Positions 945 to 22,800 of a stretch of DNA of 64,000 bases are shown here, one piece after another. The stretch is from contig NC_134028.1 in NCBI RefSeq assembly GCF_964204645.1, forward strand, positions 18,235,653-18,299,652. The letters are read 5' to 3'. Made by a program: the position numbers and the translations under genes. The stretch is from Tubulanus polymorphus (Eukaryota; Animalia; Nemertea). The first letter of the stretch is position 1, and each line of letters begins with the position of its first letter. The notes under the pieces were generated by a model. The model saw nothing but the letters and a program-made list of their open reading frames with translations. It did no database searches and had not been told where the DNA came from.

Positions 945-1166
945 ATGAGTGATAATAAGTGGATAATAACTGGATTATATAATGGAGCATTACTATCAGT
1001 TGGAACTGTTGGTTATTCAATGGTATTAAAAAAAGTATTTAAAATGGGAAGTGTTAATATTGATAGATTTGATATAAATGATATTTTAAAATCAACATTA
1101 GCAGTTACTTTATCTAATTTAACTATTGATTATTTGGAAAAACAAAAAGATATTCCTCCCATATAA
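945..1166 (+). CDS. Polinton small hydrophobic protein (73 aa)
   Basis: TAAATG start; two hydrophobic/amphipathic segments. Confidence 0.65.
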   Translation: MSDNKWIITGLYNGALLSVGTVGYSMVLKKVFKMGSVNIDRFDINDILKSTLAVTLSNLTIDYLEKQKDIPPI

Positions 1167-1190
1167 ATACATAATTATTTTACTAAATAA

Positions 1191-1613
1191 ATGGCTTCTG
1201 CAGTTATAACTATTATAGGATCAGCAATTGTTAACGCTTTAGCATTTACTGGTGGTGGATATTTATTCAAGCATATTGATAAAAATGGTTCATTAACAGA
1301 ACAAAAAAGACATAACTTAGCATTAGAGAAATATAATAAAGCAGCAGAAGAATATAGAGAAAAACGACGAAACTATATGGGTTACATCAATAAAGAATTA
1401 TATGATCAGAAGATTTCACATAGAGATTTTGAATCAGTTGATGATGCAATGAGTTTATATAACGCGGTAACAAATAAAGAAAAATTACATCTACATAAAC
1501 CTACAATATCAGATTATTATACCCCAAGTAATGAACAACAGAAATATGAAATAATATGGATTTTAGGCGGAACTGTTATTGTTATATTTGTTGCTTATAA
1601 GTTTACTAATTAG
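1191..1613 (+). CDS. Polinton membrane protein (N- and C-terminal hydrophobic helices, central coiled coil)
   Basis: TAAATG start; MASAVITIIGSAIVNALAFTGGGYLF and IIWILGGTVIVIFVAYKF. Confidence 0.7.
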   Translation: MASAVITIIGSAIVNALAFTGGGYLFKHIDKNGSLTEQKRHNLALEKYNKAAEEYREKRRNYMGYINKELYDQKISHRDFESVDDAMSLYNAVTNKEKLHLHKPTISDYYTPSNEQQKYEIIWILGGTVIVIFVAYKFTN

Positions 1614-1632
1614 TAATTTTTTTGCTAAATTA

Positions 1633-2067
1633 ATGGAAGATAAAGTTGATAATATTGATATTATTCCTCACGATATAAATAAAACTAAATTAAAAATATA
1701 TTTAGAAAAACAAATATTAGAATTTGAAAGTGACTTAAAGATAAGAAAGATAAAATATTTAAAAAGTAAAATTATATATTATTTGATTATAAGTGGTTCG
1801 GTTACAATTAGTTCTGTAATAACATTTCTAGCAATATTCAGTCCATTAACACCTTTAGCTATATCAATTGGTGTATTAGGATTAAGTTCAAGTGTTTTAA
1901 CTGGTATAAGTTCAAAATTAAATATAAAAATTAATAAAGAAAAAATTAAAACTAATATAAAAGAAATTAATAAATTAAAGAATACACTAGATTATATAAT
2001 AAGTTTAAATGGCCATATAACAGTTGAAGAACAAGATAAATTATTAAAAGAATTAATAAATTATTAA
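1633..2067 (+). CDS. Polinton two-TM membrane protein (true start probably MEDKVD at 1633)
   Basis: The in-frame ATG at 1633 follows the shared T7-N6 promoter motif; hydrophobic hairpin IIYYLIISG...LGLSSSVLTGI. Confidence 0.65.
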   Translation: MEDKVDNIDIIPHDINKTKLKIYLEKQILEFESDLKIRKIKYLKSKIIYYLIISGSVTISSVITFLAIFSPLTPLAISIGVLGLSSSVLTGISSKLNIKINKEKIKTNIKEINKLKNTLDYIISLNGHITVEEQDKLLKELINY

Positions 2068-2083
2068 TTTTTTAGTTATATAA

Positions 2084-3154
2084 ATGGCAGATAGTTTTCC
2101 AAAAGCTTTCCAATACAATAAATCAATTAAATATAATATTCCTGCAATAGATTTTAAGAAAAATATTACATAAAGAAATGAAGTTTTAAATTCATTAATT
2201 GATTTATATATTTATGTTACTGAAAGTAATAGTTTTCATGTAAAGATGGAAAATATATTTCATGTGTATACAATTAATTTTGAAAATTTAAATGAGGCAA
2301 AACAATGGTTATTAAAATCTAATATGAAGTATTGGCAGAACCAATTAAATTTTGCTGTTTATTGTGCAACAACAGGATGTGGAATTAGTTGGAATGATCA
2401 TTTGAATAAACCAAGTTTACCATTGATGTTATCACTTTTTAGATTTCATACTTATTTTCAAATAAAATTAATATTAGATGAATTAGAATGTCCTTTACCA
2501 GGTTCAAAATATTTTAAAGAATTGAATAATAATATTAATTTTTCTAAGTTTTATAAAATATGTAATGAATTTAATATTAATTCAAATAACGATTTTAGAG
2601 CAAAAATTGGAACAATACATTGGAACAACACTTCATTCGATGCGCAGAAACAATTTAAAGTATTATTTGAAGATTCAATTCATAATGATAAAAATAGATC
2701 GATTCCAGAAAACATTGTAAGATATCAAAATTATTTAGATAAATCACATATTAGATTAAATTATTGTATAGGCCCTTATCTATTCATTATTTCTAATGAT
2801 TTGGTATTAAAGATGGGAAACATAATTGGTTACAATAATCTAATTAAAACTGCCACAATAAATAATTCATTTTGATTAAATGATATAAATAAAAAGATTA
2901 TTACTGCTCCAAACTTAATGGAAGGTGAAAAAAATAAAAAACATTTTCAATCAACTGAAACTAAAACTAATAATATTAAATTAAATAATGATTCTAAAAT
3001 AAAAGATTACAATACATCAGAAAATATTAGAACCGATAATATTCAACATGATATAATTAAAAATAATGATGATAATAAATCCCATGAAAATGCTAAATTA
3101 GCTTTAACTTGTATAGGAATTGTAATCGGAGGAATATTATATTTTAAATTTTAA
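2084..3154 (+). pseudogene. Polinton protein with C-terminal TM; two premature stops
   Basis: TAAATG start at 2084; one frame joins ORFs 2246-2875 and 2918-3154 across TAA 2171 and TGA 2873; motif WQNQLNFAVYCATTGCGIS. Confidence 0.7.
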
Positions 3155-3170
3155 TTTTTTTATTATGTAA

Positions 3171-4595
3171 ATGGCAGAAGGCGGAGAAGATATTGGAATT
3201 GATACTTTTGGTGACGCTCCCGGTATAAGTGATGAACAACCACCTGATTTTGATGAAACAAGTTTTAGGATTGATAATAAAACAGCATATAATTCTAATT
3301 TAACTACACCTGAATATATTGATAAAACACGTTCAAAGATAAGTACTGAAAATGAAGTACCAGAATTAACAGGAAAAGTATTTAAATATAATAAAATTGC
3401 TAGTGATTTTAAACCAATGTTAAAAAGATCTGGTTTCAATATAACAAATAAAGGTATGGATTATTTAGTAGAAGGTTTAAAATATTTTAATGGTGATTAT
3501 TATTAGGAATTGAAAGGCGACTATTATTTTAAGATTTCAAATCTTAAAAGTACCGATAAAATAATAAAACAATCAACTTTTAATTTATTAAAACAATCAA
3601 AAATTAAGAAAATCATTAATGATGTTATAACTGATGTTACACAAAAAGAAAGGGATGATAATATAAAAGAATTTAAACAAAGAAATGATTATTTTTTTAA
3701 GATAATTAATGAAAATTTAGAACCAGAAACAATTACTAAAGAAGTTATAAATTCCAAAACTAGTAAACTTAAATCAAATAAAGTTCCAATTGAAAAACTT
3801 TTACCGTATGGATTACTTGATGCAACAGATCAAGAATTAGAAGATTTAGATATATTTTCTGATAAAGCAATTAGAGAAATTATTAGTATAAGAAATGAAA
3901 CTGATAAAATTGCACATAATAAAAGTATAAGAGATATTAAAATTAACAATTTAGAAAAAGAATTAACTGATAAAAATGAAGAAATAGAACAACTAAAGTC
4001 TGATCAAGTAATTGATGAAATAGAATATAGGCAAAAAGAATTACGTTTAGAAAAAGAAAAAGATGATTTAGAATATAACATAGAAAAAGAAGAAATTAAA
4101 TTATTATTAAAATCATATGATTATAATATTAATAGATTAAAAGATGTTTTTAAAAGATATCTAATAAAACCAGATTCTAAAATATCATTGAAAGATAGAA
4201 TAAAATTATTATTTAAGTTTGAAGGAATAACAATTCTTTCAATTCTAACAGCTGTAACTATGGTATTTACAACAATTGGTTTAGCAATGTCAAATGCTTT
4301 AAAATCTACTCCTACTCCTACTCCCAATAAACCAGATAAACCCCCGAATGATAATAATTCTATACAAGATAAAGTTAAGGATGGTTTAAAGAAATTAGCA
4401 AAATATTTATGGGAACTATCTAAAAAATCTGCTGCAGCATTGCCAGGAGTTATTGCATCAATTGTTGGTTTTATATTGAAATCTGCAGGAAACATTATTA
4501 ACTTTGCTGCGGAACATATTATTTTATTTCTAATTACAGTTGTAAGTGCTATTATTTTTGGGTTAGTGAATATGATATCAAAAAATATCAAGTAA
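3171..4595 (+). pseudogene. Polinton long coiled-coil protein with C-terminal hydrophobic helices; premature TAG at 3504
   Basis: ORFs 3171-3506 and 3510-4595 are in the same frame; TAAATG start; coiled coil followed by ITILSILTAV... and ALPGVIASIVGFIL... helices. Confidence 0.7.
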
Positions 4596-4635
4596 ACATG
4601 ATCAAAAATAAATAATTAATTTTTTTGTTAAATAA

Positions 4636-5884
4636 ATGAGTGGGAGTTATATCAATCCTTCTAAGAATCATAGAATATCTAATGCTATTAAAGCAGAAAG
4701 ATCACATCATATAATCACTCATAACCCTTCTAACATTAATCCTGATGAAACTTTATATGTTTGAATCCCTCGATTAACACAAAATACTTTTTATGTTCCA
4801 AATAGTATTTATTTATCAGCCGATATAAAAGTAATCGGTAATAATAATAATTATGTTGTTGATAATGTTGGAAGATATTTGATTAAAAAATTAACTATAA
4901 AGATTGGTCCAGAAACAGTTTTCTCATTAGATGATTATAATTTATTTATGCATTATAAAGATTTATGGTTAACTAAAGAAAATAGGAATAATATGATATT
5001 TCAAGGCATCCAATCAGAAAACCAAAATAAATTAAGATCAGAAGCTAATGACGCAATAGTAACTCGTACCGCAGATAATTTGATAAAAAAGATTTATGGA
5101 AGCAAATATAAAATTCCATTAGACTTTGAATTCATAAATAATAATGCGCCTTCATATAGATATGCAATTCAAGAAGACGTTATATTCGAAATAACATTTG
5201 CTCCTGTTAATGAAATTGTAATATCTAGCGTTGTTAAAGATATGAGTTATAAATTATCGAATATATGTTTAGAATATGATACAGTAACTGATGAAAATAT
5301 TTCAAGTATAATTCAAACCAAATACAATCAAGGATTTACATTATTATATGATTATATTGATAAATTTAAAACTGTAACTATCAATGCAAATGATGAAATT
5401 ATTAATGAGAATATTAACTTCCCAAGGAGATCTATTAAAGGTATATTAATATTTTTTTACCATTGCAACATATTCTAATGGTGCAATACAGGTTGATAAG
5501 TATTATAATCCTGAAATAACAAAAGTAGAAATAACTATCGAAGGAATAGCAAATAAAATATTTTGTCAAGGAATGAGAATGATAGATCAATGGCCAGAAA
5601 TTAGAAAACATTTTATGAATGAAAAAGTAAAATCATCTGAAAATTGTAACATTAATCAAATTGATTATTATACTGGTAATAAATACGCATTATGGTTAGA
5701 TTTTAGAACAACAGAGGATAATTCATTACATGGTTCTGGAAAAAAATTACAAAACACTAAAGATGGAATACAATTATTCATGACAAAGAAAAAAGGAAGC
5801 CTAAATTTCAAAATGCATATTTATATTATATCTGACGCACAATTAAATATTGTAAATTCACAATTAGATAGTGTTATGTATTAA
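4636..5884 (+). pseudogene. Major capsid protein (double jelly-roll), disrupted by TGA at 4762 and a frameshift in the T-run near 5452
   Basis: TAAATG start; ~415 codons when rejoined; HNPSNINPDETLYV*IP, LSNICLEYDTV, RSIKGIL, YALWLDFRT and YIISDAQLNI are Polinton MCP-type motifs. Confidence 0.75.
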
Positions 5885-5933
5885 GTTTTATGAAATATTA
5901 AAATTTTAACTTTAATAAAAAATCTTATATTAA

Positions 5934-7070
5934 ATGGAAGGAGGTAAAGTATATAAACATATTCCATACATCGATACACATGAAAATAATGATGGTTTAT
6001 ATTATGTAATACCTTGTAATATAGCTTTGATATTTGATCCTATTTTCAAAATTTATAAAACTCAACTAATAGAAATCGATAATAATAAAAGTGAAGTTGT
6101 TGATAATTTAAGTAATGTAATTGATAATAATGTAATACCTTCTACATCTAATAATGTAATACCTACTACATCTAATAATGATAAGATTGAACCTGATATC
6201 AAAACCAAAACGAGAAATGAAAAATATTGTGATGTATGTAAGAAATATATATCATATAAAAATTGGGCATCACATAAGAAATCAAATAAACATATAGAAA
6301 AAGAAAAGAATAATAATGATAATAATATATCTGATAATAATATAATAGATAATATCATAGATAATGTTAATACAATTGAAACAAATGATACAATAGATAA
6401 TATAACAGATAATGTTGATACAATTGAAACTAACGATAATGAAACAATTGATGATTCTAAAAAACATTGTAACATTTGTGATTTAGATATTTCTAAAAGT
6501 AATTTTTCTAAACATAAAAAATCTCAAGCGCATATCGAAAATGAAAGGAAGTTAGAAGAACATGAAAAGAAATTAAAAGAAATAGAAAGAAATAAAATGT
6601 GCCAATATTGTAATAAAAAAATTGAACCTGTTGATGAAAATACTCATTATAAATCAAAGTTACATCTAATTAATGTTTATAAAATGGTGAGTATGATACC
6701 ATTGTTAAATAACCCAAATAAATATATCAAATATTTTAATCCTAAAACTAACCAATATTATATATTCTATAAGTTGTTATTTGATAAATTATTAGCTTAT
6801 GCAGAAGATAATCCTAAACAAATATATAAATTATTATATTTTAGAAAAATAGATTTAAGTTATCTGATAAATAATTTTGGACATCATTTTGATTTTGATT
6901 ATGATGATTTTGATGAATACTTAGAAAAATTAAGAGAAAAAGCTAATATACCTACTAATTATTATGTTAAGACGGCTCAATTAAAATTAATACATCTACC
7001 TAAGACTTTTGGTGAATTAGATATAAACAGAGATGATTTTATAAATATATTAGAAACAAAATTAGAATAA
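5934..7070 (+). CDS. C2H2 (matrin/Met-type) zinc-finger protein with Asn/Asp-rich tandem repeats
   Basis: Three CxxC...H...H fingers (CDVC..HKKSNKH, CNIC..HKKSQAH, CQYC..HYKSKLH); 24- and 48-bp internal repeats. Confidence 0.8.
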   Translation: MEGGKVYKHIPYIDTHENNDGLYYVIPCNIALIFDPIFKIYKTQLIEIDNNKSEVVDNLSNVIDNNVIPSTSNNVIPTTSNNDKIEPDIKTKTRNEKYCDVCKKYISYKNWASHKKSNKHIEKEKNNNDNNISDNNIIDNIIDNVNTIETNDTIDNITDNVDTIETNDNETIDDSKKHCNICDLDISKSNFSKHKKSQAHIENERKLEEHEKKLKEIERNKMCQYCNKKIEPVDENTHYKSKLHLINVYKMVSMIPLLNNPNKYIKYFNPKTNQYYIFYKLLFDKLLAYAEDNPKQIYKLLYFRKIDLSYLINNFGHHFDFDYDDFDEYLEKLREKANIPTNYYVKTAQLKLIHLPKTFGELDINRDDFINILETKLE

Positions 7071-7072
7071 TT

Positions 7073-7441
7073 ATTATAAAACTAATTTATATAATTATAT
7101 ACTAGACGTACGTAAGAATCGTAAAAATCCAAGAATCCAAGAAATCTTACTTTCTTACTCGTACGTCTAGTACATAGTTAAATATAATAGTTTTCATAAA
7201 AATTAAAAACATAAAATTATTAATCTAAGTATAGAAATAGTTATAATATAATCTGTTTTTATTTTTATTAAGAGAAAACATATAATTTATTCATTTTTAT
7301 ATAATTCATTTAATAATTTATATATCTATGTACTAGACGTACGTAAGAATCTAAGAATCTTACTTTCTTACTTTCTTGGCAAGAATCTTACTTTCTTACT
7401 CGTACGTCTAGTATATAGATATATAAATTAGTTTCTATAAT
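7073..7441. terminator. Paired hairpins between convergent gene blocks
   Basis: TACTAGACGTACG...CGTACGTCTAGTA at 7100-7172 and again at 7331-7413, with longer imperfect AT-rich arms; terminator role is inferred. Confidence 0.55.
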
Positions 7442-7458
7442 ATTCCAAATTATAAATT

Positions 7459-8070
7459 TTATTTTATAAATTTATATTCATAGGGAAATTGTAGTCTCAG
7501 TAATAATTTTGAACCTTTATTATTCTTTAATTTATTCATATATTCATCATGTAATTCAGTAGGTATAATTTGATTTTCTTCCAATGATTGTTGTATGGAT
7601 TTTTTATCTTTGTTATAAAATAAAACTAGAAATCTTATATTCTCTCTAAAGTCTTTAACAATTGAATTATATTTTTGATTTAAAACCCATGTTGTTATCC
7701 CGAAATGTCTTCCAGAGAAAGCTAAGTAACATAACTCACTTTCTCTCACTTTTGAATCATGTAGATTAGCGCAATCATCTATAATGAATAATGTATTTGA
7801 TCCTTTATAAGTATCAATTGCTATTTTTATACAATTATCTAAATTTTCTTTTACTGTTTTAGGATTTAATATAATAAACTTTTCTATCTTAACTAAATCT
7901 CTATTATATGTTTTATTCATTTCATAAGTAGGGCAGAATAATATTATATTATCAAAATGATTCTTATAAATAGTTTCTAACAAGTCTAATATGAAATGAG
8001 TTTTACCACAGTTGGTTACTCCAGTAACTAACATATTATGCGGTTCAAATATAAATAAATCTTTATTCAT
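7459..8070 (-). CDS. A32/FtsK-like DNA packaging ATPase
   Basis: Walker A GVTNCGKT, Walker B LFIIDD, SGRH motif; intact. Confidence 0.9.
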   Translation of the reverse strand: MNKDLFIFEPHNMLVTGVTNCGKTHFILDLLETIYKNHFDNIILFCPTYEMNKTYNRDLVKIEKFIILNPKTVKENLDNCIKIAIDTYKGSNTLFIIDDCANLHDSKVRESELCYLAFSGRHFGITTWVLNQKYNSIVKDFRENIRFLVLFYNKDKKSIQQSLEENQIIPTELHDEYMNKLKNNKGSKLLLRLQFPYEYKFIK

Positions 8071-9148
8071 TTATTCTTTTAATTTTACTAGATAAAATCC
8101 ATTCATTAAATTTATCATCGTATCCTTTATATTTCACCAGAGAATACTTTTTTCCTTTAAGAGTTTTTGTTTTCAATACTTTTTCTATTTTGTATTCTAT
8201 TTCATCTGGATTTGGTACAAGTAATAATTCTTGTTCATAGAAATAACCTAATATTTCTTCATCTTTTATATCTTCTAATTTATAAACAAATGGTTTAGTT
8301 AATATTATCTTTTTAATCTTAAATATTTCTTCTGTAAAATTTGGGGTATAACCTTTATAAAATGTTTGTCTATATTTAGATATTCTTACGTGTTGTCCTA
8401 TTTTAGATTTAGGTTCTCCGAAATCATGTGTAACAAACGCTCCATATAGATTATTCCAAACTATTTCTGAATTATCTTCTTTTCTAGCTTGTATAGGTTT
8501 CATATTTATAGAACTATGGTTAGAATTATTATAACCTTTCACTAAATCATCTAATACATCGATATATTTATATGTTTCGTTAGCAGTAAAATATTTCCAC
8601 ATTCTAGTTTTCAATGTTTTATTAAATCTTTCTATAATAGATGCTTTTTTATCTGAGTGTGTTGAAAAATATTTTACATCGTTATCAGATAATAGTTTTT
8701 TGAAATGTTTGTTATAAAATTCCTTACCTTCATCAAATTGTATCTTATCTGGAATAGCTTCTTTAAATATAGATTTAAAAGCATTTGTTACTTCTATACC
8801 AGTTTTATTTTTGATTGGAATTGACCATGCGTATCTACTGAATATGTCTATAACATTCAATATCCAGAAATATCCTTTGTTGTATTCTTCTAAGTTCTTC
8901 ATGTCAATTAAATCTGCTTGCCATTGTTGATCGATATATGAAACCATAACTTTTCTTGTTCAAAAAGTTTTATCCATTTTCTTGTGGATTTGATATGTTG
9001 GTTGATTTTGTAACCATGATTTCAATTCACTATATTTTATATCACCATTATCAGATTTAATTTTATTCCATAATTCTGAAACGTTAGAATATGATACTTC
9101 ACTTTCTGGGTTATAATATAAATCTCTTAAATATTGTTCTTTTTTCAT
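8063..9148 (-). pseudogene. Retroviral-like (rve) integrase with C-terminal chromodomain; premature TGA at 8960-8962
   Basis: ORFs 8960-9148 and 8063-8947 are in frame; WQADLIDM, QFDEGKEF, IERFNKTLK; chromodomain YKIEKVL...LVKYKGYDDKFNEWI. Confidence 0.92.
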
Positions 9149-9154
9149 TCTATT

Positions 9155-9544
9155 TTAATCCATTAATAATAATCTAGATTTAGTTTCAATGGCTTTATGA
9201 TTTGACTTATTTTCTGGTATAATAGGTTTATTGTCTGTACACGGATAACTAAGTTTCCGATTATCATTGGAATCATCTTTATCATCAGATTTGAATTTTG
9301 ATTTATATATTACAACAGATAATATAATAACTGTTACTAATCCAATTGTAATATATAAGTAATTATTACTTCCAGCATTAGAAGAATTAGATGGATTATT
9401 ATTTGAATCAATATCAGGTGATTCATTTATATCAGTTAATTTCTTTTTCTTAGCTTTTTTTAATTCTGAAGATCTTTTACCTAATTCTCTTGCCCATTTA
9501 ATTTGTTTTTCAGATCTAACCTTTTTCTTAACGCCATCACTCAT
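9155..9544 (-). CDS. Polinton protein with basic N-terminus and single TM
   Basis: TAAATG start; KKAKKKK; YLYITIGLVTVIILSVVIY. Confidence 0.65.
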   Translation of the reverse strand: MSDGVKKKVRSEKQIKWARELGKRSSELKKAKKKKLTDINESPDIDSNNNPSNSSNAGSNNYLYITIGLVTVIILSVVIYKSKFKSDDKDDSNDNRKLSYPCTDNKPIIPENKSNHKAIETKSRLLLMD

Positions 9545-10145
9545 TTATTTTAGTTAATTTTTGTTCTGATTCATTTTCTGTTTCGACGTTTGGTTGTAGT
9601 ACAGCGTCATCTGTTTCGTTCTTACCTGATTTATATTCCATAGGCTTGATATTCGAAAATGTTATGACGCCAGTAGAAATTAATGTCATAACCGATCCTA
9701 ATTGGAATGAAGCATAACCGACCCATTTTTGTAATTCAGTCATAACTAAGTAGTCATTTTTCAAATCACTATATAATTTATTTTCATCATTAATTGGTAT
9801 TAACTGGTTACATAATTTTGAATAACATTTGACAATACCATCTGAAATAGAATCATTTATTCGGGCTAATCTAGCTTCTTCATAAATCTTAAAATATTTT
9901 ATTACTTTATCTGGTTTCATAGAGTCTAGTTCTTGAAAAGTAATGATTCTATTTAAAAACTCCTTAGTTTTTTCACCGGCAATCAATAGTTCTAGATGAT
10001 GCTTACAATATAAATAGTATTCATAATCTATATTACAATTAACTTGAATAGAATTAGAAACAACTGTATCTTTATTATCACTAATGCCCAAATCATCTAA
10101 TGTCTTTTCAATATCAATACTATTCTTACTCGATTTCTTTGACAT
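9537..10145 (-). CDS. Polinton hypothetical protein (202 aa)
   Basis: Intact ORF; TAAATG start; 8-nt overlap with the next gene. Confidence 0.65.
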   Translation of the reverse strand: MSKKSSKNSIDIEKTLDDLGISDNKDTVVSNSIQVNCNIDYEYYLYCKHHLELLIAGEKTKEFLNRIITFQELDSMKPDKVIKYFKIYEEARLARINDSISDGIVKCYSKLCNQLIPINDENKLYSDLKNDYLVMTELQKWVGYASFQLGSVMTLISTGVITFSNIKPMEYKSGKNETDDAVLQPNVETENESEQKLTKINE

Positions 10146-10244
10146 TTATATTAGAGAAATTTAATAAGAAAAATATCATAAGTATTATAAAATGATACTC
10201 GTATCTCTTTGGGTTAATACTAGTTAGTTAAAGGTAAAGAATTT

Positions 10245-10336
10245 TAGTATTAGTTATTGTTTTTTGGAGTTTTTTTATTTGTGATATAAAGTATTCTTTT
10301 GAAAAGAAAGTATTAAAAAAACAATAACTAATACTA
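10245..10336. terminator. 21-bp perfect inverted repeat downstream of the HNH gene
   Basis: TAGTATTAGTTATTGTTTTTT (10245-10265) / AAAAAACAATAACTAATACTA (10316-10336). Confidence 0.5.
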
Positions 10337-10389
10337 GCTAGTTGAAGATATGTAATTTTTAATACTTTTTATTTAAAATCTATTATTCT

Positions 10390-11058
10390 TTAACCACTCA
10401 TTAAAGACTCAACGTATTGTTCATTATTTGGATCATTGTTCCATTGATCAATAAATTTCTTTGCCTTTGTTAACTGTTCTAAATATAACTGTAAATCTAG
10501 TTTATTAGATTTAATTATGTTTTCCTTCTTTTCTAAAGGTCTTAGATTCTTCCAATTCCAAATAAGTTTTTTATTGTATTCATCATTCATGTTAAATTTA
10601 GATATTGGTAACAGGTGATCAATATGGTAATAATCCCCATAATTATCTATATTCATTTTATCATCGAATTGAAATATAATCCATGATTTGAGAAATTCAT
10701 CTGAACAACCCAATAAATTAGATAATGTTTCTGAATGTGTTTCTTTGTTGAATAATTGTGTTAATCTAGTCCTTAAACATTGTTTCAATCTAAAATTAAG
10801 ATCTGTTTGATATCTTTCTCTCATATATTCTGCCATATAATAATTATAATGTTCTATATTATCTTCTCGGTATTGTTTGGTATATAGTTTAAAACAAGTT
10901 TTACAGCAATATTGAAAACCATCTTTGCTAATCTTACGCTTACTAAATTCTGTTAAAGCTAATTTATCTAATTCACATTTAGAACACTTCTTGTAATATA
11001 TATTTATAACACCAGCGTTATTTGTAATATTGATGGTTTGTGGTTGTTCTGATTCCAT
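10390..11058 (-). CDS. HNH endonuclease with N-terminal Cys4 zinc ribbon (type common in large DNA viruses)
   Basis: CSKC...CKTC; YHIDHLLP...WKNLRPLEKKENIIKSNK. Confidence 0.8.
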   Translation of the reverse strand: MESEQPQTINITNNAGVINIYYKKCSKCELDKLALTEFSKRKISKDGFQYCCKTCFKLYTKQYREDNIEHYNYYMAEYMRERYQTDLNFRLKQCLRTRLTQLFNKETHSETLSNLLGCSDEFLKSWIIFQFDDKMNIDNYGDYYHIDHLLPISKFNMNDEYNKKLIWNWKNLRPLEKKENIIKSNKLDLQLYLEQLTKAKKFIDQWNNDPNNEQYVESLMSG

Positions 11059-11264
11059 TTATTATACATATTTTTTTACTAAATTGATTTTAGAAGTTCA
11101 ATGATTTATATCATGCATTATTTCAATCACACTTTACTAACACTTTTAATGTTTAAAAATCTAACTCACACAAATATGAATATTGAAATAATGTTGTAAA
11201 TATATACTTTTGTATTGAATAATCTGTCAATTTAAATGTTATTCATGTATATGAATATTTTAAG

Positions 11265-11674
11265 AGTAATAGGGGTAATGGGCTTTCAGGTTAAAGGTTG
11301 AATGGTCGAGTTCATTAAAAACAAATATTAAAAGTAATTTAAAACTATAATATATTTTCATAACCGTGTGTATTTCAGTTGAATAATAGAATAATTATTA
11401 TTATTAAAATATATTTGATTATATGAATTTGTGTATTGTAAATAAATCAATTGGTCGCGGAGCGGAGCGGTAGCGAAGTGGAGCGACCAATTGATTTAAT
11501 ACAATATGCTTTTTAAATTTAAATTATTGATATCTTAGAATAAATATTTAGTTATAATATAAAATGCACACGGTTATGAAAATATATTATAGTTTTAAAT
11601 TACTTTTAATGTTTTGTTTTTTAATGAGCTCGACCGTTCGACCTTTGATCTGAAAGCCCATTACCCCTATTACT
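11265..11674. repeat. 410-bp imperfect terminal palindrome of the Polinton
   Basis: ~110-bp outer arms (AGTAATAGGGGTAATGGGCTTTCAG / CTGAAAGCCCATTACCCCTATTACT) and an inner 16-bp stem TAAATCAATTGGTCGC/GCGACCAATTGATTTA around a GA-rich loop. Confidence 0.92.
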
Positions 11675-14600
11675 GCTAACCTCATTTCTTCAAACATAAC
11701 TCTGCCTTCAGAATCATCCTCAAAGCCACTGCCCATCTCTGACTCTACTGCCGAATCTGGGTGATAGTCATCATCCTCACTGTCACTCCCAAAATCTGAT
11801 TCTTCTCCAATACAAATGGCTTTTGAGGTATTCGTAAGTTCTTCAGCAGGTCGCTTACATTGAATACCAATGTTTCGGGCTAAAACAGACCGATCACAGT
11901 AGTTGGATTTAAAAGATAGGGAGAATAGATGATATCATAAAAAACCCACTCTATGTTATAGTTTAAAACATTTAAAAGCATGATTTATCATTGAAAAAAT
12001 TTTAAAAAGGACAAACAATTGTGTATCTTATCAAAATTTTTTTGAGATAATTGTCTTGCTTCGTTATTTTCAAGCGCGTAGCTATCATCAGACCACATTT
12101 AATCATCACAGGAATAAAAATGAGATTAATACAAGATGTACCATCATACGATATAGACTGAATGAAAAATACTCACTCAATGCATTTTCCTGGATTCCAA
12201 CTGAACACCTGGCCTTAAATCGTGTTCTGTAGATAATTTTAGGCTTGATGCGGTACACAATTTAGGTCTTCACCTGTGCAGTTTCTTTCAGCATTTGCAT
12301 CCCTAGAAAAAATCATTAAATTACAAAAAAATTCAATGATTACAGTGATATATTCAAAACTGAATGACAATGATACACCATCCCATCATGAAAATCCCAC
12401 CTCGAGATTTACAATCCGGTTCAGCCTGCATAGCAAATTCTCTTGTCCTCTCGATCTCTGGTTTAATACAGGGTTCCGTATACACTTCCCCGCCTTGATC
12501 TTCACCAGGTTTTGCATAATCATCAACCAAATTTGGTTGAAGATTATACAGTGTGAATCGATGGCATGGCTCCTTGTTTCAGCAAAAATCTATTTCAAGC
12601 AACAGGCAACTGTTAATTCACAAAACTTCTGAAATATTCATTTTGTAAGTGTTTTTAGTGAAGTAAGGCACTCACAATAATGACAATAAAAGCCTATTGT
12701 ACAGTGCGCTGTGGCCTAGTAGTAGTTCAATGAAAAGATGTTTCTATTGCCAGACAATGTGAGCTGACCTTGTCACGACGTACCTACGTGAATTGTATTG
12801 ATCGTTCGCCTATTGGTTCATTTGAATTTGGCACTATTCTTTGTACTGAAATCCTATATATATGTGTGAAGTCCTGTAATAAAGGTTCACTTCATATTGG
12901 AAAACCAGTCGAGTTTATCTCTGCTTTCGAGTCGTTTTTGGGTCGTCAATGTCGACATTTTAGGATTCTGTCTTTCGTCTGGACAGAAGTTGGTCCCTCG
13001 AGCCGAGGGAATCATGGAACAAATGGAAAAATTGAAACAGTCAAGGAGAGCCCAAAGAGGGCAGGTTAAGAAATTACGTGGAAATTGCGAGAAACATTTG
13101 GAGGAAAAAAATGTGCCAAAAGGTATGTCAACCTTAAAGACTCTTTATTCTAAAATTGAATTGTTGGAATTGCCCGACAATCAAATTCTAGAATCCTCAG
13201 AATTATCAGGAGACGAATATGGTGATTTGGTAGCGGAATTCGATGATTATATATGCGAAAGGAAACAAGAGATCGATTTGCTTGAAATGGCATTCCAGGA
13301 ATTAGCTGTTCAAGAGAAAATCGGAGCGATTCGAACCGTGCTCAGAAATCCGCGAGAACTGCAAATCTACCAAAAATTAATAAACCGATATACGATGGTA
13401 ATTTACTCAATTGGCAAACGTTCATAGATTTGTTTAATACTTCCGTCCATAATCAGCCTTATCTATCAGATGAGAAATTCACGCATTTAAAATGTTATTT
13501 GTCGGGAGAGGCTAAGTCAGCTATCGAAGGGTTATCTCTAACCAAAGCAAACTACGGTATCGCTAGACAACTCATAGAGGAGCGTTTTGGGCAGCCTCAT
13601 AAGATTGCAGACGCGCATTTGCAAGTTCTTGCGAATTTGGAAAATCCAACTCCTGAGTTGAAATCGCTTCGTAAATTTCACGATAAGATCGAAATAAATA
13701 TTAGAGCTCTGAGTTCTTTAGGCCATCAGCCTGAAAGTTATGGCGCCTTACTCGTACCGGTCATCATTTCGAAATTACCACAGATCGTCAAATTGAATAT
13801 TTTGCGCAACCATGGCAATTGTGAGTGGGTTTTGGATTAATTGCGTGCCGCTATACTTAGTGAAATTCATATTTTAGAATCTTGTGGAAGTTCGTTTTCT
13901 TCGCCAGTGTATGTCGGCACCGGAAACGAGTTCGTGAAAACAACTGAAGATTTTGTTACGCTTCACACTCGACAGTTCGCGTCCGGTGGTCATTCACGCC
14001 CTGCAAGAAAGTGCTTGTTTTGCCAATCCGATACGCATTACGCAACGGAGTGTGATATTATCACATCTAGAGATGCTTGTCTTAGCATTATCGGAAACTT
14101 GCGTTTGTGTTTCAATTGCCTTGGGAAACACAAGGCAAGCGACTGCACTTCGAAGTCGCGGTTTAGAGCCTGCAAAAAGAAGCACCATTCTAGTCTTTGT
14201 GGTGCGACCTTCACACGTCGAAAAGTCAACGTTGTAGTCAACACCGGTCAACATAATGCGGGAATTGCACTCAATTCTGCACGTTCGAGTTCTGTCAGCA
14301 ACGCGGTCGTCGCTGAATCGACCGAGAATTCAACCGAGAATTCATATTCTACAACAAAATGAGATCAGCACTCGTGCGCCTGCTGTTAAAAGCCTCTATT
14401 CGAGAGTCACAACAGAACACGCTACAGTTCTTCTCAAAAAACTGCTATAAGTCTCTATTCGAGAGTCACAACAGAACACGCTACAGTTCTTCTGAAAACT
14501 GCTATGGCTTCTATAGATCATAACAGTAATAGATTGTCACTATTTTTATTGTTAGATGATGGTTCACAGCGTACTTTTGTAACGCAAAGTTTGATTGACG

Positions 14601-16800
14601 AATTAGGTATTAAACCTCATAGAAAGGAGACCATAAACTTAGCCTGTTTTGGGGCCACAACTCCTAGCAGTCGCGAGTTAGACTGTGTTTATTTAGATAT
14701 TAATTGTAATAACGGTCAACTTTCTATTGAGGCATTGGTAGTTCCAACCATTACGCAACCGTTATCTATTCCATGCAGGGCTACAGCCAATATTCCTGAA
14801 TTCAAAACGTTACAACTAGCTTGTCCGTTGTATGAAGATAACGTTCAGATTGTTAGTGTATCTCTTAATTGGATCAGACTACTATTACAATTTTGTTAAT
14901 TCCGATCTACCAACGATCAAGTCTAAAAGTCGTCCTATAGCGGTACCTACGTCATTAGGTTACATGATTACAGGTCCCATGTATCAGAGAAATTGTATCA
15001 GTAATCAAACAACATCAATCTTGCATGTTCTTGCTGAAGCTGATTCCTTGGACTTAAAAAACTATTGGTCTTTAGAAAACATTGGTATTGAGTCTCCTAT
15101 CGCTGATTCAAAATCATCTTTTTTGGAAGAATATTTTGCGAATTCCATTTCCAAGATAGAGGGGATTTATTATGCCAGACTTCCGTGGAAAGTTAACCAC
15201 AGTCCCTTGCCTAGCAATTACCGGATAGCAATGTGTAGAACTAGAAGTTTAGTGCGTAGACTAGGGAACACACCAAATTTACTAGAGAAATATCACAGAT
15301 TTATAAAATACCAATTGGAAAGGGAATTCATAGAAAAAGTACCCGAACCATACATGATCAGGGGAAAAGAGCATTATATTCCACATCACACGGTCTTTAG
15401 ACAGTTGGCTACGACCCCAATTCATATCGTATTTGACTGTAGCTGCCGGCAGTCTAAAGATTCGCTTAGTTTGAACGATTGTCTGGAGTCGGGTCCAGCA
15501 CTGTTCAATGATATAACTTCTATTATCCGCCTGTTCAAATATGGGGTTATAACCGATATAAAAAAACCTTTTTTACGTGTCGGTCTACATCCTGATGATC
15601 GCCATGTAACCCGGTTCTTTTGGTTAAGTGACCCCACGAACCAAGATAGCGCATTCGACGTCTATAGGTTTGAAGGGTATTATTTGGTGCATCGTGCTCC
15701 CCTTTTATGCTAAACAGCACACTACTTTTTCTTTTGACTCACACTGATGGGTTATTTTTTTATCAGATAGCACGTGATTGTTACATGGATAATGTAGTTA
15801 CAAGTCTCAACAATGAGCGAGATTTAGCCTTATTTTACGAATCATGCAGATCTTTAAAAGCCGATGCTAATTTTAACTTCAGAAGTTGGACTTCTAATTC
15901 TCAGGTACTTAAACAATTAGGTACGTGCTACGAGATTTGTGACGATTCTAAACTCGTTAAGGTCTTAGGGTTAATATGGAACCCCGAATCTGATACTCTG
16001 AGTTTTTCTGACCGTCGTATTTCAAACGAGTGTCCTATCACGAAACGTCATATCTTGCAAAGGTCAGCTTCAATTTTTGATCCCCTAGACCTAGAAGGCA
16101 TGGTTTCACAATCACGCTTAGCAAACAAAAGTTAAGCGGCATTTTGACATAAAAAAATGGATACTGCGCTTGGAAAAATAAATTTTATTGATTTGAATTG
16201 GACTTGAAAAATGCGACCTTTTTAACAGTGATTTTCAAGCCCTTACAACAATAATTCTTAAACCATGTCTCAAATAAATGTTAAGATGACTGAATGAAAC
16301 TTACCTCTTTGCAAATTGTGCATCATACTGCATTTTATCAACGAAATCATCGTTGGTAAAATGCCGGTAACACACGACGCTGTACAACGTTGGGCCCCTC
16401 CAATTCAATCGCTTTAAACCTACAATAGAAGCCCATTTTTCTCGAAGAACAGGATTCTTCGGAAAAAGAAATATTCACCCATCCGAATAATCGCACCCAA
16501 AGACAACGATTTGGTATTGAGAAAAAGCAGTGAAAACACGCCGAGTAGTAAAAATGCAAAGTTATCTCATAGAAGAGAATTTTCAGTGCTGCCTTTATTG
16601 ACGTCACAGCGCCGGAGATTGACGGAAATTGCCGATGATTTCTAACGCCATGTATACAACGAAATGAGTTCAAAAATTGTCTTACAAAATCATGATTTTC
16701 GTGGAAACTACACATCTTTGAACATTACTATATCAAAATCTTCCTTAGTTCGATAGAACTTATCGAATTTTGATGTAAAAATGAAAATGTCAGTTACCCT
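11675..16800 (-). mobile_element. Degenerate THAP-domain DNA transposon (Kolobok-like), interrupted by the BEL element and the Polinton
   Basis: Minus-strand terminus TTAA|AGGG at 16804-16797; spliced THAP remnants VCYRHFTNDDF...FAKR|gtaag (~16305-16510) joined to ag|FLLKQGAMPSIH (~12590); acidic exon RNIGIQC...SDSEDDDYHPDS running up to the Polinton end. Confidence 0.6.
12771..16087 (+). mobile_element. BEL/Pao LTR retrotransposon, 3'-truncated and pseudogenised
   Basis: 5' LTR TG...CA at 12771-12985; PBS TGGTCCCTCGAGCCG at 12991 (tRNA-Tyr-like); gag (DUF1759-like, Cys/His knuckles), protease LLDDGSQRTF, RT with YMDN, ends at IFDPL; 60-bp tandem duplication near 14389-14505. Confidence 0.9.
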
Positions 16801-16866
16801 TTAAAGCTTTTTTAGATATTTAGACCCATGAGGGTAGTAACCGTAATAGATGTTGTTTCTCTTCAG

Positions 16867-19800
16867 CTACCGTCTTAGTGTCATTGTTCCCTCCCACTGA
16901 TGACTACCCATACTTCAACAGTCCCTGGACTTTGGCGAATCCAACAATTACAATAAACATGCCCGAAGAGGAACCGATTGCACCTAGAGAAACCCTTGTA
17001 ACTACTCTAGTAGCTCGAGATGCAATTACAAATCAGAAACTGTCAAACTACACAGTTGTACCAGATTCTAATGCTGATGGATATTTCCGGTTAGATAGGC
17101 TAAATGGTAAATTTTTGACTATTATGATAAGCATTATATTCTTAATCTCATTATGAATTGTCCCATTCTTTATAATTTGATCTCTTTATTTCAGCATCTG
17201 GATTCTGTAAGAATTTAACCATAGTTTGTTTCTCTTTGTATGCAATAGAACTTTCGTTTTTCTGTCTTGTTTTTGTGTGTGGGTTTCAGCATAGACGTTG
17301 TTGATGCAGTGATGTTCTTTGCTTGAAGTGCTTATTTCTTCTAAATGGTAGATTATATTTAATCATCGTTTAGAATAAGTATAGGAACATTGATTTCTTT
17401 TTGTTTGCAGGTCACGTATATTTGAATAAACGTGTGGACTACGAGACTTTAAGTAAGAAATCCATTGGCTTTGAGGTAGAAGTTAATACCATAAGAACTC
17501 CAGTGCGAACATCAAAAGCTTACATTGTTTTGCAAGTTCAGGATTTGAATGATAACAATCCTCAGTTCTATCGTCCAAATGTGAGTCATCATGTAATGTT
17601 GTGTCTCCTGTAATCGCAACCTCACATTAACTTTAAAGACCAAGTAGGACTTGATTTGTCAAAATGCTTATGATCTTGATCTTATTCAATAGTAACTTAA
17701 CCCCACTACCGTAGGCGTAATAGAAAAAGGAATTCACCTTTTGACCTTAATTCGCGCACCTGCGAGCACCTGGGGAGCACCTGTGGATGGCAGGTCGTTC
17801 ACGTTAGCATTATCGTTGACTGGTCTTTTTTGCAATATACCCGCTAAAGTCGATTAATTTTTCTATCAATTGATAAATAAGCCATATATTTTCTATCAAA
17901 ATGATAAAATAATTGAAAAACAATTTATTTGCATAAGAAAATAAACACGACACTACGTCGTCAACCGGTCGCATGTAGAAAAACATGTCAGTCAGCTGAT
18001 TAGAAGTGTGTTAATTTCGCAAAGTTCTTGGCACAGTAATAGCTTTCAACCCGGTTCCACCAAGTAATTCACATATATTCTATAAGAGAACATCAATAAC
18101 TAAAGATGGGGCCAACGATGAAAGGTGAGTTTCCGTATTTAGGCTTCAAAAAATTAAAAATTTCATGTGCAATAGTGATGTGCGCCGTCAATTCAAATCA
18201 ATCAATTCGACTTCCAATTAAAGTATCAATCGACAGCCACCTCAAACCGCATCATAAGTCGGCCAAGGGAATCTTGGCTGTGGTTTGGGTTGTCTATAAG
18301 CCCATTATGACATCAAAAAAGATAAGAATCATAGAACGATTAAGAGTTAAAAGGCCTTAACATCTAGTTTCCTGACTGGAGAGTATCTAGGGTAGTTTTA
18401 CAAGACTATGAATGATTTCAGATATATCCTTTCATTTCAGTTGATTGATGATCCTTACTTCATTGAAGTATAGAGCAAAAGTCTGTTGACGATAAGCAAA
18501 TTTGGATGATAAGATTGTCAATAACTACGTTTAGCATCAACGTTACTAGTAAGTGCCATCTAGAATGCTGGGCTGTCGGCCTTTCATTGTTGCCGCCTTG
18601 ACTTATAAAATCCTGATTCGAAATAGATTGATTTGGGGCATAGTGCATCATTTGAAAAAAGATTTGAAATTCATGACATATTTTCACACAGTTAATGTGT
18701 CCGTTCACTTCTGTACACATATTCACGTTTCAGGATCTCATATGTCTTTTTGCTGATCAATTTTTAGAGATTTATAGAAAAGCTTACCACATATTTCAAG
18801 GTAATTGAAAAAAAAAAATATCAAAATTTCACATGTATGGAGAAACAGGTGATTTACTCAAATACTTCAAGTAACATCAAAATTATTCGGCATTCTTTTT
18901 TATACGATTTACATTTATTTTACAGAGATTCCATCAGAGTTTCCATTGGAAAACCATTGCAACTGCATCTACGTGGAACAGACACCAGTTGCTCTAATGT
19001 TTTCGTTGAATACAGGGCCTGGTTTTGGAAAAGACTTACAGTCTTTACATTGCTCCCTTGTAAATAGAACAATTTTGTAATTTTGTAGGGCAAAATAGAT
19101 ATTCTCGTACACGTATACACTATCTATGGTTATTCTGGTTTTGTATTTTCACTCCAGGCTAGTCTGTGTTCCTCTTGAATCGGCGAAAAAGTGGATCTGC
19201 TTACTGGGGTGGGGGTGGGGGATCATTTATCCTATGAAATTGTTCCAGTTTGTATTAAAGAATATCAGGATCGAATGAATCGAATCATGTTGCAGCCATT
19301 TTTGGCCCTGTCACAAAAAATTCAGTAGCTTACGTGATTTCCTGGATCTGGGTGCCGACACATTTGCTATGCAGTTGAATTTGCCTTTTCCTTCAATTGT
19401 TACATGAAAACTGTTCACTTTGCATGATTACCTGCATTTTGACCTCGGTAGTAAAGTGCTGCTGTACTTCTGGATGCGACTTACTGCCTTTGCATCATGC
19501 ATACTTCATACTGTGGTATGAAAAAATATTTCCACTAATGGCTATCCACCTGTTTCATCCGCTAAAGGTAAGAACCACCCTGTATTGACTCAAGTTTTTA
19601 CTTTTTTCAGGGATATTCATTTGAAATATCAGAACTGATGAGATTCCCAGCTCAGGTTGGGCAGGTGTTCGCAAATGATTTGGATAGCGGTAGCTTTGGA
19701 ACTGTTAGATATTCACTAAGTGGTAGTGGCCATCAAGCTTTTACAATTGATCCCATCATGGTAAGCTATATATGATATGATAAGCTTTTCTTTGTTACTT

Positions 19801-22800
19801 CATTTTTGAAAAATTTCTTTCCGAGTTAAGTACGCAGTCTCAAATGTTTTGTGACTTTCTCAAAATGAATAAAAAATGGAACTAATTTCTAGTCCCCAAA
19901 TCCTCAAAAACAACTTGAAACATACCGACTATGCCATAAAATCAACCTATTATCAGCCCCATTTGTGCTATTGTCTTTAGAATACATAATACTTAATAAA
20001 TAATAATTTGGCTTCAGAATACATAATACCTTCACATTTACAGATTACATTACGTTAGTAATTATATAGAATTCCGAGCTGCGTCTTCCTTGATTATCAC
20101 CAAATGACGGGACCGATATATTAGTAATAGTAATAGTTATTTGTGGTAATGTATTGGGTTCGAACTGCAGCCTGGCTTCCGGGAGTTGAACCTTCTAACC
20201 ACTCACCTGCTGCACTCATTCAATTATTATAAACATTGACAGCAGAGAAATATTCCTCCTAAGGTGTTTCGTGTCGTCTGTGATGGGGAACAGACCCATA
20301 AAACCAGAACTATAACGACTTCTTAGATGCAACGGGACTTTATTAATCAGCCATCTTAGAGTACACACTATAGTCCGGATACGGACTCAGGATAAATCAC
20401 GGAACATCTCCCTCTTTATATGAATTTATTTATTTATTTTTTTTAATGTTTGTTTTTGAATACTTATACTAATTCACGACTAAAAACCACCACCATTATA
20501 GTCTGATTGTCTAATTAAAGTTCCTTTGATTTATGCTGTGCTTATAATGACACTTTATTTTGAGGCTTGACCACCCGACCAGCATGCTTGACATAAGAAG
20601 ACGGCTGTGGATCGGTGACCACAGGTAACGACGCAGACGGAGGAGGAGGTATGTCATCTGCCTTTGACGGGACCAGCGGTTGGTCAACAATGGTCTTATC
20701 ATTCGCAACGGAAATTCCGGGAGATGCCATCGGAGGATCGGTACCACTTCTACTTGGAGCTTCGCGGACTCCATGTGGTTTCAATCGCAACTGTTGCCTA
20801 TTTCGTCGCAAACGCGTACCATTGGGTGTTTGAATCTCAAATGTTCTCTCTTTCAACCGTTTCACAACACTAGCGGGTTGCCACGCTCTGTCGCCATGTT
20901 GTGTTGGTTGCACGCGCACTACGTCTCCACGTTGAAGGGGTTTTAACTCTTTCCGATTAGCATACAATCTGGCAGCCGTTTCTATTTTCATATGTTGTTT
21001 CTTTCGGATCTCCCCCTCAATGGAGGATGCAGAATTCGGTTTAGGGAATTTGGCTGTGGTGGGTATTTGAGTCTTAGTGCGACGTCCGAAGAGTATCTGC
21101 GCCAGGCTACTCTTCAATCCTTCGGACGGAGTACTTTGCACATTAAGAAGACCAATGTAGGGGTCTTCATTACACAGAAACGACTTACGCATTAACCGTT
21201 TAGCTTGTTTTACGGCAGCTTCCGAAACTCCATTAGCTTTGGAATTTCCGGGACTCGAGAACTCATGTGAGAATCCCCAACTTTTCCCAAAGGTTTTAAA
21301 CTCTGAGGAAGTATATTGAGGACCACCATCACTCACAAATGTGTCTAGTATTCCGTGCAAAGTGATGCTTGATCTTGGCGATAACAGTCTTGGCATCAGT
21401 CAACGGGAGATAATCAAGTTCAAAGAAACCGCTCACTAGATAATGTCTATCTTTATAAATGAAAAGGTCCGAACCGACCTTTTGTCATGGCCTGCAAGGA
21501 ACATCATGCATATACAACCGTTCTTCCGGTTGACGGCCAGCGTAGGTAGAACATGTGCTTCATGATTCGATGAACTGTCAGACTTCTGCAGACATCCTTG
21601 GCCAGTATATCAACTCCCTAGCGCGACGAAGACAGGAGTTGATGCCAAGATGTCCAGCGTGTAACAGATCTTTCATCTCTGCGCGCATGCTTTTTGGGAT
21701 TACGACCCTTTCACCACGCAACACTATTCCATCTTGGACAGTGTATTCATCCCGACAGTGATAGTACGGGACTAGATCCGCCGATAGATTGACCTTCGAA
21801 TCAGGCCAACCCTTGATAACGGTCTGTTTTAACGAGGTAAGGGTCTCATCCAGCGCAGTAGCATCCCTTATCTGTTGCAAGCGATCTGGCTTGATTGGTG
21901 AGAAGTTAATCAAGTTCACAGATACGAGTTCATGATCCGGTTTCTCGGAGCAGCAAGGCCTGTAGTCGTTTTGGATCCTTATGAAGTGGTTTGTCTACTA
22001 TCGCAACGAGTGGTTTGTGATCGGTCACAATATCGATATCACGTCCGTACGTGTAGTGATGGAATTTCTCTAAACCGTAGACGATCACGAGCATCTCTTT
22101 TTCGATTTGTGCCCATCGAGTTTCGGTGTCAGCTAGGGCACGACTCGCGTACGCAACAGGACGATCACCCTGTATTAACACTGATCCAATCCCGTATTCA
22201 GATGCGTCATTTTCGAGTATCAGTTCCTTATTAGGATCATACATGGCTAACACAGGCGTTTCGGATATCAATCCTTTCACCTTTTCAAAAGATTCGATTT
22301 GCGACTGAGACCATACGAACGGCACATCCTTCTTTAGTAGGTTTCGCAAAGGAAAGGTCAGGGAGTTCAGATTCGGTATAAAACGAGTCAGGTAGTTAGC
22401 GATACCGAGAAAACGGCAGAGTTCTTCAACATTGTTTGGAGTGTTGATTTCTTTCACGGCACGAGTATTTCCGTCGAGTACAGTTCCCTTTCCTATGGTT
22501 TTTGCTAATATTTTCTAAATTTGGATTGATCGCCAATGGTTTTTCTATACGACCCGGCCCTGCGGTATTGCATTTAGCCACCGGTTCGTATCGAGGCAAG
22601 GGGAAGGCTCCAAAAAGGGGCTCTTCCTTTGGGAAAAACTCGAAATGAATTCTTGGGACCAGTGGGAGGTTGTCTGCAGCAGGCAGCAACCCATTGGTCC
22701 GACCTTTTTGGAGACGGTTGGCCCTCCCGGGTCGTCTCTCGTGGCTACCGTCTCCTTTTCCTAAGGCGACCGTGCCTGATGAGGTCACCTCCTGACATGC

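Follow-up and report, generated by a model that had tools for sequence, protein, structure and literature searches.

A 410-bp fold-back terminus with strand-polar G·T pairs in a Maverick/Polinton-type element family

We analyzed a 64,000-nt stretch of DNA from the nemertean Tubulanus polymorphus (contig NC_134028.1, positions 18,235,653 to 18,299,652; hereafter the window, numbered from its first letter), which begins inside a Maverick/Polinton-type element with a double jelly-roll capsid gene, an A32 ATPase gene, and a chromodomain rve integrase gene. The right end of this element is a 410-bp imperfect palindrome (11265-11674), whose outer edge coincides with the element-host junction at 11674. 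Every substitution between its two arms leaves a G·T pair on the + strand, which follows from the sequence to be the strand with its 3' end at 11674, and raw reads indicate that this state is shared across the family. We interpret the structure, tentatively and with less than even confidence, as the right-hand fold-back end of a high-copy provirus family of the Maverick/Polinton type, in which the 3' end of the + strand would snap back to prime or protect the end during linear DNA copying.

Palindrome architecture and strand polarity

The 25-nt word at the terminus was found as exact copies at 11265-11289 (+) and 11650-11674 (-) and nowhere else in the whole window, where none was expected from 100 shuffles. 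This exact recurrence and the in-register pairing of the arms agree with an earlier, preliminary description of the sequence, which had placed an inverted repeat of the terminal sequence 410 bp inside the end. Between the outer arms (11265-11374 and 11563-11674), we counted 109 pairs, consisting of 74 A-T, 28 G-C, and seven G·T pairs on the + strand, with no other mismatch. One wobble pair has its G on the inner arm (11290G/11649T). The remaining six have T on the inner arm (11292, 11299, 11303, 11311, 11326, and 11371), opposite G on the outer arm (11647, 11640, 11636, 11628, 11611, and 11566, respectively). The arms also differ in length by two 1-nt indels, both in A runs (around 11317-11325 and 11612-11622). 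The single polarity of the substitutions and the two small indels, both proposed in the preliminary description, were thus recovered in this register.

Further inside, a 16-bp stem (11443-11458 and 11483-11498) is 100% complementary and encloses a G-rich 24-nt loop (11459-11482; 67% GC). Within 1-11674, 24-nt windows with a GC content of at least 60% are confined to 11446-11490, so the inner stem-loop and its GC-rich patch were also correctly anticipated, the loop region being the sole such site of the visible element. The hexamers bordering the palindrome differ (TTTAAG at 11259-11264; GCTAAC at 11675-11680), indicating, as had been noted before, that the palindrome is not surrounded by a target site duplication (TSD) of its own. 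On the + strand, the palindrome contains 67 G versus 42 C and 155 T versus 146 A. The element ends with CT, and the end read inward begins with AG. Such termini are typical of Polinton/Maverick elements.

All seven arm differences keep pairing on the + strand and break pairing on the - strand, and all can be written as C-to-T on the + strand. With the two polarities taken as equally likely, seven of seven mismatches of one polarity correspond to a two-sided P of 0.016, a post-hoc figure. If the inner arm is taken as derived, all six GC-to-AT changes occurred at C, despite the presence of 15 C versus 21 G (P 0.005, post hoc). Both strands, which the preliminary description had proposed to fold, form structures far beyond those of shuffled sequences, and the + strand folds better. 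As single-stranded DNA (ssDNA), the + strand reaches -125.8 kcal/mol (z -23.0; equalled by 0 of 100 shuffles), compared with -113.5 kcal/mol (z -22.3) for the - strand. RNA parameters give -212.2 and -171.6 kcal/mol, respectively. The advantage of the + strand is therefore 12 kcal/mol for DNA and 41 kcal/mol for RNA parameters.

The terminus and its variants in raw reads

Copies of the element were compared through one raw-read Illumina run under the same species label, in which 150-nt reads were placed at 90% likeness; four runs of one study contain part of the stretch. We placed 7,868 reads on the palindrome region, 51 of which fitted two places. Read depth (both orientations summed), which serves as a rough guide and not as a copy count, was ~550-900 in the element interior, ~1,100-1,900 in the palindrome, and ~3,100-3,200 in its last ~50 bp, and was ~3-12 in the least repeated flank. 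More locally, it was ~1,640-1,780 at 11268-11301, ~1,500-1,770 at 11523-11607, and ~3,090-3,200 at 11625-11658. The reads fell into three identity bands (469, 3,122, and 4,277), most of them being 90-99% alike. These data suggest that the element belongs to a diverged family of roughly hundreds of copies (several hundred times the unique depth), 1-10% diverged from one another. Hundreds of copies is a high number for Maverick-type elements; in the accessible part of one paper, the highest pPolB2 copy number detected was 388 polymerase copies, in Trichomonas vaginalis.

At the outer edge of the palindrome, 1,483 and 563 reads (~2,046) continue past 11674/11675 into mutually unlike flanks (agreement 0.34), and the depth drops from ~2,384 to ~31. 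Position 11674 is therefore a real terminus, common to many copies at different insertion sites. Together with the capsid fold, the A32 ATPase, and the rve integrase, these reads bear out the view that the palindrome occupies the true end of a Polinton/Maverick-type element. An additional 378 reads share only 11618-11674. From this class and the extra depth, the last ~50-57 bp probably represents a short core terminal inverted repeat (TIR) also present elsewhere, most simply at the unseen left end, or at other ends.

At the inner edge, the depth is continuous across 11265, the sequence to its left is as abundant as the palindrome, and no loose end was found at 11265 among the six best loose ends (each with at least 221 reads). 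The inner arm thus sits within conserved element sequence; the 410-bp unit is mainly not a solo miniature inverted-repeat transposable element (MITE). Two ideas in the preliminary description, an internal second end and an independent MITE with its own TSDs, accordingly found no support. The depth is also not halved leftward across 11265, and no consistent second context appears there among the six best loose ends; both findings speak against an identical palindrome at the left end, which lies outside the window. Among the copies, the palindrome keeps a fixed orientation, and the inner arm carries the full outer-arm letter set at no listed frequency. An assembly artefact was ruled out, since the palindrome is covered in full and deeply by reads obtained independently from a different sample. 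A free high-copy virus in place of integrated copies was also ruled out by the prevalence of reads that are 90-99% alike, the ~2,046 reads entering different flanks, and the lack of a pile of molecule ends.

The window base is the majority base at all 14 G·T positions. The arm asymmetry was therefore inherited from the family founder and is not a recent change of this copy; the comparison of arms across copies, which the preliminary description had suggested and which was made here with reads only, found the G·T state family-wide. Minority variants restore Watson-Crick pairs in five of the seven wobble pairs. These are 11290 G>A (276/1535) or 11649 T>C (1133/2991); 11292 T>C (280/1570); 11371 T>C (299/1253) or 11566 G>A (657/1607); 11611 G>A (527/1749); and, in combination, 11303 T>G (251/1336) with 11636 G>C (533/3203). 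In four further pairs, Watson-Crick in the window, both partners vary with comparable frequency: 11275 G>A (438/1602) and 11664 C>T (460/2481); 11280 G>A (547/1571) and 11659 C>T (798/2573); 11340 T>A (238/1107) and 11597 A>T (544/1651); and 11367 T>C (253/1255) and 11570 A>G (398/1624). The majority base at 11648 is G (1754/3107), which would add a + strand G·T pair opposite 11291. Judged by eye from loose ends, one sub-lineage appears to diverge after 11302/11311 in the inner arm and before 11618 in the outer arm while keeping the inverted symmetry with different letters, although this signal is weak. In the spacer, most reads carry A>T at 11406 and A>G at 11407, and the window copy does not represent the commonest spacer form.

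Readings of the fold-back end

In the reading that we favor, the folded + strand would have its 3'-OH at 11674 paired opposite 11265, from where a polymerase could synthesize inward through 11264 and beyond. The outer arm would be held constant as the terminal repeat recognized by the integrase. The inner arm would have drifted only by C-to-T changes on the + strand, each leaving a T·G pair on the folding strand, while G-to-A changes, which would generate A·C mismatches, would not have survived. In some sub-lineages, sites farther in than the terminal ~57 bp seem to have gone all the way to T-A. The wobble pattern is the one expected for a stem kept on one single strand, and it fits the hairpin-priming model of a 2026 preprint (bioRxiv 10.64898/2026.07.28.741278). 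The preliminary description had proposed three roles for the structure: a self-priming origin, a resolution site, or an internal second end. Self-priming fits best because the wobble-bearing strand has its 3' end at this terminus, and the last of the three is unsupported. We infer from this arrangement that folding and priming may take place in vivo.

Several observations weigh against this reading. The polarity is carried by only seven founder events, and its P value is a post-hoc figure. Conservation among the copies shows inheritance by descent and not selection. No variant was listed at 11299, 11311, 11326, 11628, 11640, or 11647 among 40 of the 57 variants. The pair-preserving variants were derived from 150-nt reads, which cannot link the two arms of one copy, and misplaced reads from the other arm or from other ends could mimic two-sided changes (the inner part of the right arm is ~27% deeper than the left). 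The palindrome seems to be present at one end only, so that a second mechanism would be needed for the other. Strand-switching joints inside the palindrome amounted to 22 of the 7,868 reads in three 'opposite strands' joints (15 of 25 joints listed), providing no sign of the flip/flop that classical hairpin transfer would produce, and no free linear or hairpin-ended molecules were seen in the reads. A search of the visible 11.3 kb revealed no gene with any replication function. Moreover, the capsid gene is broken, indicating that this copy has decayed, and present-day activity is not indicated.

On the present data, selection on a single-strand fold and one-strand deamination in a founder would look alike, and with seven events chance could yield the same polarity. 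The strongest alternative is a neutral relic, which we consider unlikely but a serious competitor. The inner arm would be left over from the formation of the end, for example from a captured adjacent two-ended mini-element or a copying error, and the palindrome would be functionless, with founder transitions whose polarity arose by chance. A state common to all copies by descent is compatible with this explanation, the 410-bp unit is laid out like a two-ended mini-element, transitions are the commonest substitutions, and most copies are dead repeats, 1-10% diverged. With only seven events (P ~0.016, post hoc), chance is hard to beat. Nevertheless, the polarity coincides with the strand that has its 3' end at the terminus, and the 109 arm pairs contain neither a transversion nor an A·C mismatch. 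The apparent pair-preserving variation among sub-lineages, subject to the short-read caveats above, points the same way, as does the recurrence of fold-back ends in unrelated Maverick and polinton-like virus (PLV) lineages described in the available part of the preprint (bioRxiv 10.64898/2026.07.28.741278).

A mutational asymmetry without selection, in which the + strand of the founder was single-stranded (for example, displaced) and underwent cytosine deamination, so that C-to-T changes left G·T pairs, is quite unlikely. It would account for the C-to-T nature of all seven differences and for the excess of G and T on the + strand across the whole palindrome. However, the inner arm, with fewer + strand C (15) than the outer arm (~21), holds six of the seven changes and the outer arm one. 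The changed C also has no single sequence context: inspection by eye of the six inner-arm changes for a deaminase context or one resembling repeat-induced point mutation revealed nothing in common, the 5' neighbors being T, T, A, G, A, and G. Furthermore, the GC skew along the element tracks gene direction and not one strand.

We judged it highly unlikely that the palindrome acts as a duplex cruciform or replication junction cut by the neighboring HNH nuclease, as in telomere or concatemer resolution. Enzymes named endonuclease VII cut branched DNA, and the HNH-finger nuclease gene that adjoins the palindrome matches a phage family labeled endonuclease VII (7e-15). This kinship was not upheld by other searches. 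Pfam returned HNH_4 only (E 0.07), with no Endonuclease_7 at E up to 10; the best Foldseek rows, Cas9-HNH and Hpy99I, were non-significant (E above 0.1); and a profile search against the PDB gave no match. The gene at 10390-11058 is therefore best described, from its sequence, as a putative HNH-finger nuclease of unspecified target, and its action on the palindrome would be a guess. Nucleases beside PLV ends have also been interpreted as homing genes, in the part of the literature available (PMC11296320). In addition, a duplex form gives no reason for a one-strand wobble polarity, and no flip/flop was seen.

An RNA hairpin, namely a G·U-containing transcript that feeds small-RNA silencing or regulates a neighboring gene, is very improbable, even though the + strand is 41 kcal/mol better than the - strand with RNA parameters. 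The genes adjoining the end (7459-11058) all lie on the - strand and point away from it, and their transcripts would carry the A·C version; a transcript of + strand sequence would need to extend out of the element into host DNA; and no Rfam family was detected in 10900-11900 at E up to 1. The RNA structure under selection that the preliminary description had considered is thus disfavored. Finally, two inward-facing ends 410 bp apart would resemble an independent fold-back transposon or MITE that had landed next to the large element or at its terminus. This reading is largely refuted by the unlike bordering hexamers and by the flat depth and missing loose end at 11265, as against 2,046 reads at the outer end.

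The self-priming reading can be extended to a bolder form, to which we give little chance. Here, a Maverick-type animal virus family would lack protein priming at one end, the 110-bp wobble-tolerant stem would self-prime, and the HNH nuclease would nick the turn-around in one fixed orientation. Such nicking would explain the missing flip/flop. If this were true, the one-strand G·T code would be the first sequence-level sign that such terminal palindromes work as ssDNA.

Gene content, relatives and known systems

The element portion of the window (1-11674) has a GC content of ~23%, in comparison with 35-50% in the rest. The coordinates of the palindrome parts and the genes are summarized in Table 1.

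Table 1. Parts of the terminal palindrome and genes of the visible element portion.
Feature	Coordinates	Strand	Remarks
Inner arm (inverted internal copy of the terminal repeat)	11265-11374	+	T at six and G at one wobble site; reads cross 11265 into 11230-11264, no depth step
Left spacer half, AT-rich, poorly symmetric	11375-11442		Alignment uncertain, ~65% alike
Central stem-loop	11443-11498		Read depth ~1,400-1,490, hence present in most copies
Right spacer half	11499-11562		6-bp stretch at 11512 missing in 608 of 1,331 reads
Outer arm (terminal repeat of the element, reading inward from 11674)	11563-11674	-	
Last ~50-57 bp, ~2x the depth of the remaining palindrome	11618-11674	-	Loose end 'before 11618' in 378 reads
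Element-host junction	11674-11675		Read breakpoints, depth drop, GC rise from ~0.23 to 0.35-0.5
Double jelly-roll major capsid gene, broken	4765-5884	+	Frames 4765-5478 and 5450-5884; first ~44 residues not in frame
A32-type packaging ATPase	7459-8070	-	PF04665 4.8e-12
rve integrase with C-terminal chromodomain	8063-8947	-	PF00665 9.9e-10; PF00385 6.1e-5, below cut-off
Putative His-Me (HNH) finger nuclease, the gene closest to the palindrome, pointing away from the terminus	10390-11058	-	phrog_1035 'endonuclease VII' 7e-15, plus HNH families

The integrase has 1,379 relatives, most of which combine rve and chromo domains; the few named ones are from animals, including 'transposon-derived protein F54H12.3'. 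In the nuclease, D147, H148, P151, N171, and N180 are invariant among 16 unnamed relatives. Between the nuclease gene and the palindrome, a 126-bp segment (11104-11229) is absent from many copies, as represented by the joints 11098/11103 to 11230 and a loose end 'before 11230' with 533 reads. Several alternative breakpoints lie between 11098 and 11254.

An integrase query identified 67 metagenome loci, four of which (L001, L002, L003, and L007) are 69-81% identical to the element in DNA, with 20-22% GC and intact genes. None of these four covers 10390-11674 of the window. The terminal 25-nt word was absent from the viral_contigs set and, when queried with two positions degenerate, from the metagenome_contigs set, and it was present in 0 of the 67 metagenome loci at up to six mismatches. 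A single ATPase query gave no relative in viral_contigs. The capsid pieces of the window are 76% (residues 45-275) and 70% (residues 274-415) identical to an intact 415-aa open reading frame (ORF) of L003. The structure model of this ORF (predicted local distance difference test score 85) matched iridovirus and PBCV-1 capsid proteins (Foldseek E ~1e-15) and mavirus (3e-11), indicating that the L003 protein is predicted to fold as a double jelly-roll major capsid protein. Other capsid-side ORFs of the window look fragmented beside intact ORFs of L003.

Between the capsid gene and the ATPase gene, a 378-aa ORF (5934-7070, +) contains several zinc-finger-like C-x2-C...H-x-H units and long low-complexity runs rich in N, D, and I; this region cannot be aligned to L001 or L002 as DNA. 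In the 11,483-nt L003, the genes are arranged differently, with those for the integrase and the ATPase placed after the capsid block on the same strand, and the contig carries a deoxynucleoside kinase gene (10340-10981; PF01712 1.7e-31). A self-complementary stretch of L003 (9082-9359) was considered as a counterpart of the palindrome and rejected as an unrelated AT-rich tandem repeat between genes. No polymerase family was found in the ORFs of 1-11264 or in L003, and the visible ORFs showed no primase-helicase, adenain-like protease, or HUH Rep/NS1. Because the window begins inside the element, a polymerase gene may lie farther to the left.

On the host side, the element interrupts an open frame of another repeat (11675-11934, -), which is present at tens of times the unique depth. 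A 179-bp stretch (11948-12126) is skipped in other copies of the interrupted repeat. Retroelement genes crowd both strands of the flank at 13286-28024 (DUF1759 gag-like, reverse transcriptase, RNase H, and rve), and GC rises up to 0.54 at ~23-24 kb.

We know of no experiment showing how the linear genomes of Maverick/Polinton elements are copied; protein priming is assumed from the polymerase gene. Canonical members are 13-25 kb long, with TIRs of 100-1,500 bp, TSDs of 5-8 bp, and genes for pPolB and an rve integrase, according to the accessible parts of two sources (PMC10748475; PMC12747079). The present element resembles them in its rve integrase, A32 ATPase, and double jelly-roll capsid gene, and in its insertion into unrelated host sites. 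It differs in that the repeat partner lies 410 bp inside the same end, pPolB and the protease were not found in the visible part, and the shared terminal core seems to be ~50-57 bp.

Two other systems resemble the fold-back end in working principle. In the rolling-hairpin replication of parvoviruses, the 3' end of an imperfect terminal palindrome folds back as a primer, and the extended duplex carries the whole palindrome. The likeness lies in an imperfect palindrome able to present its folded 3' end as a primer, and it does not imply membership: here there is no flip/flop among the copies, no HUH Rep in the visible ORFs, and a virus type with double-stranded DNA, capsid, ATPase, and integrase. 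The attC sites of integrons are folded single-strand recombination sites with one active strand, short and cut by tyrosine recombinases in bacteria and phages. The shared logic is that of an imperfect palindrome in which the kind of mismatch tells the folding strand; sequence, enzyme, and host are unrelated.

The closest parallel is found in Halocafeteria seosinensis, where terminal palindromes next to TSDs occur in endogenous virophages (subtypes 1, 2, 5, and 6) and PLV subtype 4 with RVE integrases, and where hairpin-primed replication was proposed as an alternative to protein priming, as described in the available part of the preprint (bioRxiv 10.64898/2026.07.28.741278). These are likewise integrated virus-like elements of the same supergroup, with an RVE integrase and a palindrome at the extremity adjoining host DNA. 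Their palindromes are ~52 nt long, lie inside both TIRs, and belong to a protist host, whereas the one described here is 410 bp long, has ~110-bp arms and a separate central stem-loop, and apparently occupies one end only. It is also present in hundreds of copies beside animal-type retroelements and bears a one-strand wobble signature, which the available part of that source does not mention. In a literature search judged by the listed results, we found no paper dealing with a strand-polar wobble pattern at Polinton/Maverick ends.

A fold-back at such ends is thus of a known kind, in print for a protist, and what differs here is above all the wobble pattern, followed by the size, the two-tier build, the apparent one-endedness, the very high copy number, and the neighboring nuclease gene. 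Should data linking both arms of a copy bear out the compensated changes, sequence alone would suffice to test the hairpin model; otherwise, the structure would be an ordinary relic of end formation. To the known cases, our analysis adds a fold-back end of far greater size, carried by a family of hundreds of copies within a genome with animal-type flanking repeats, and read evidence that the fold-back belongs to the end itself, embedded and fixed in orientation, as opposed to parasitizing it. It further adds a strand-polar wobble pattern, inherited family-wide, on the strand able to prime.

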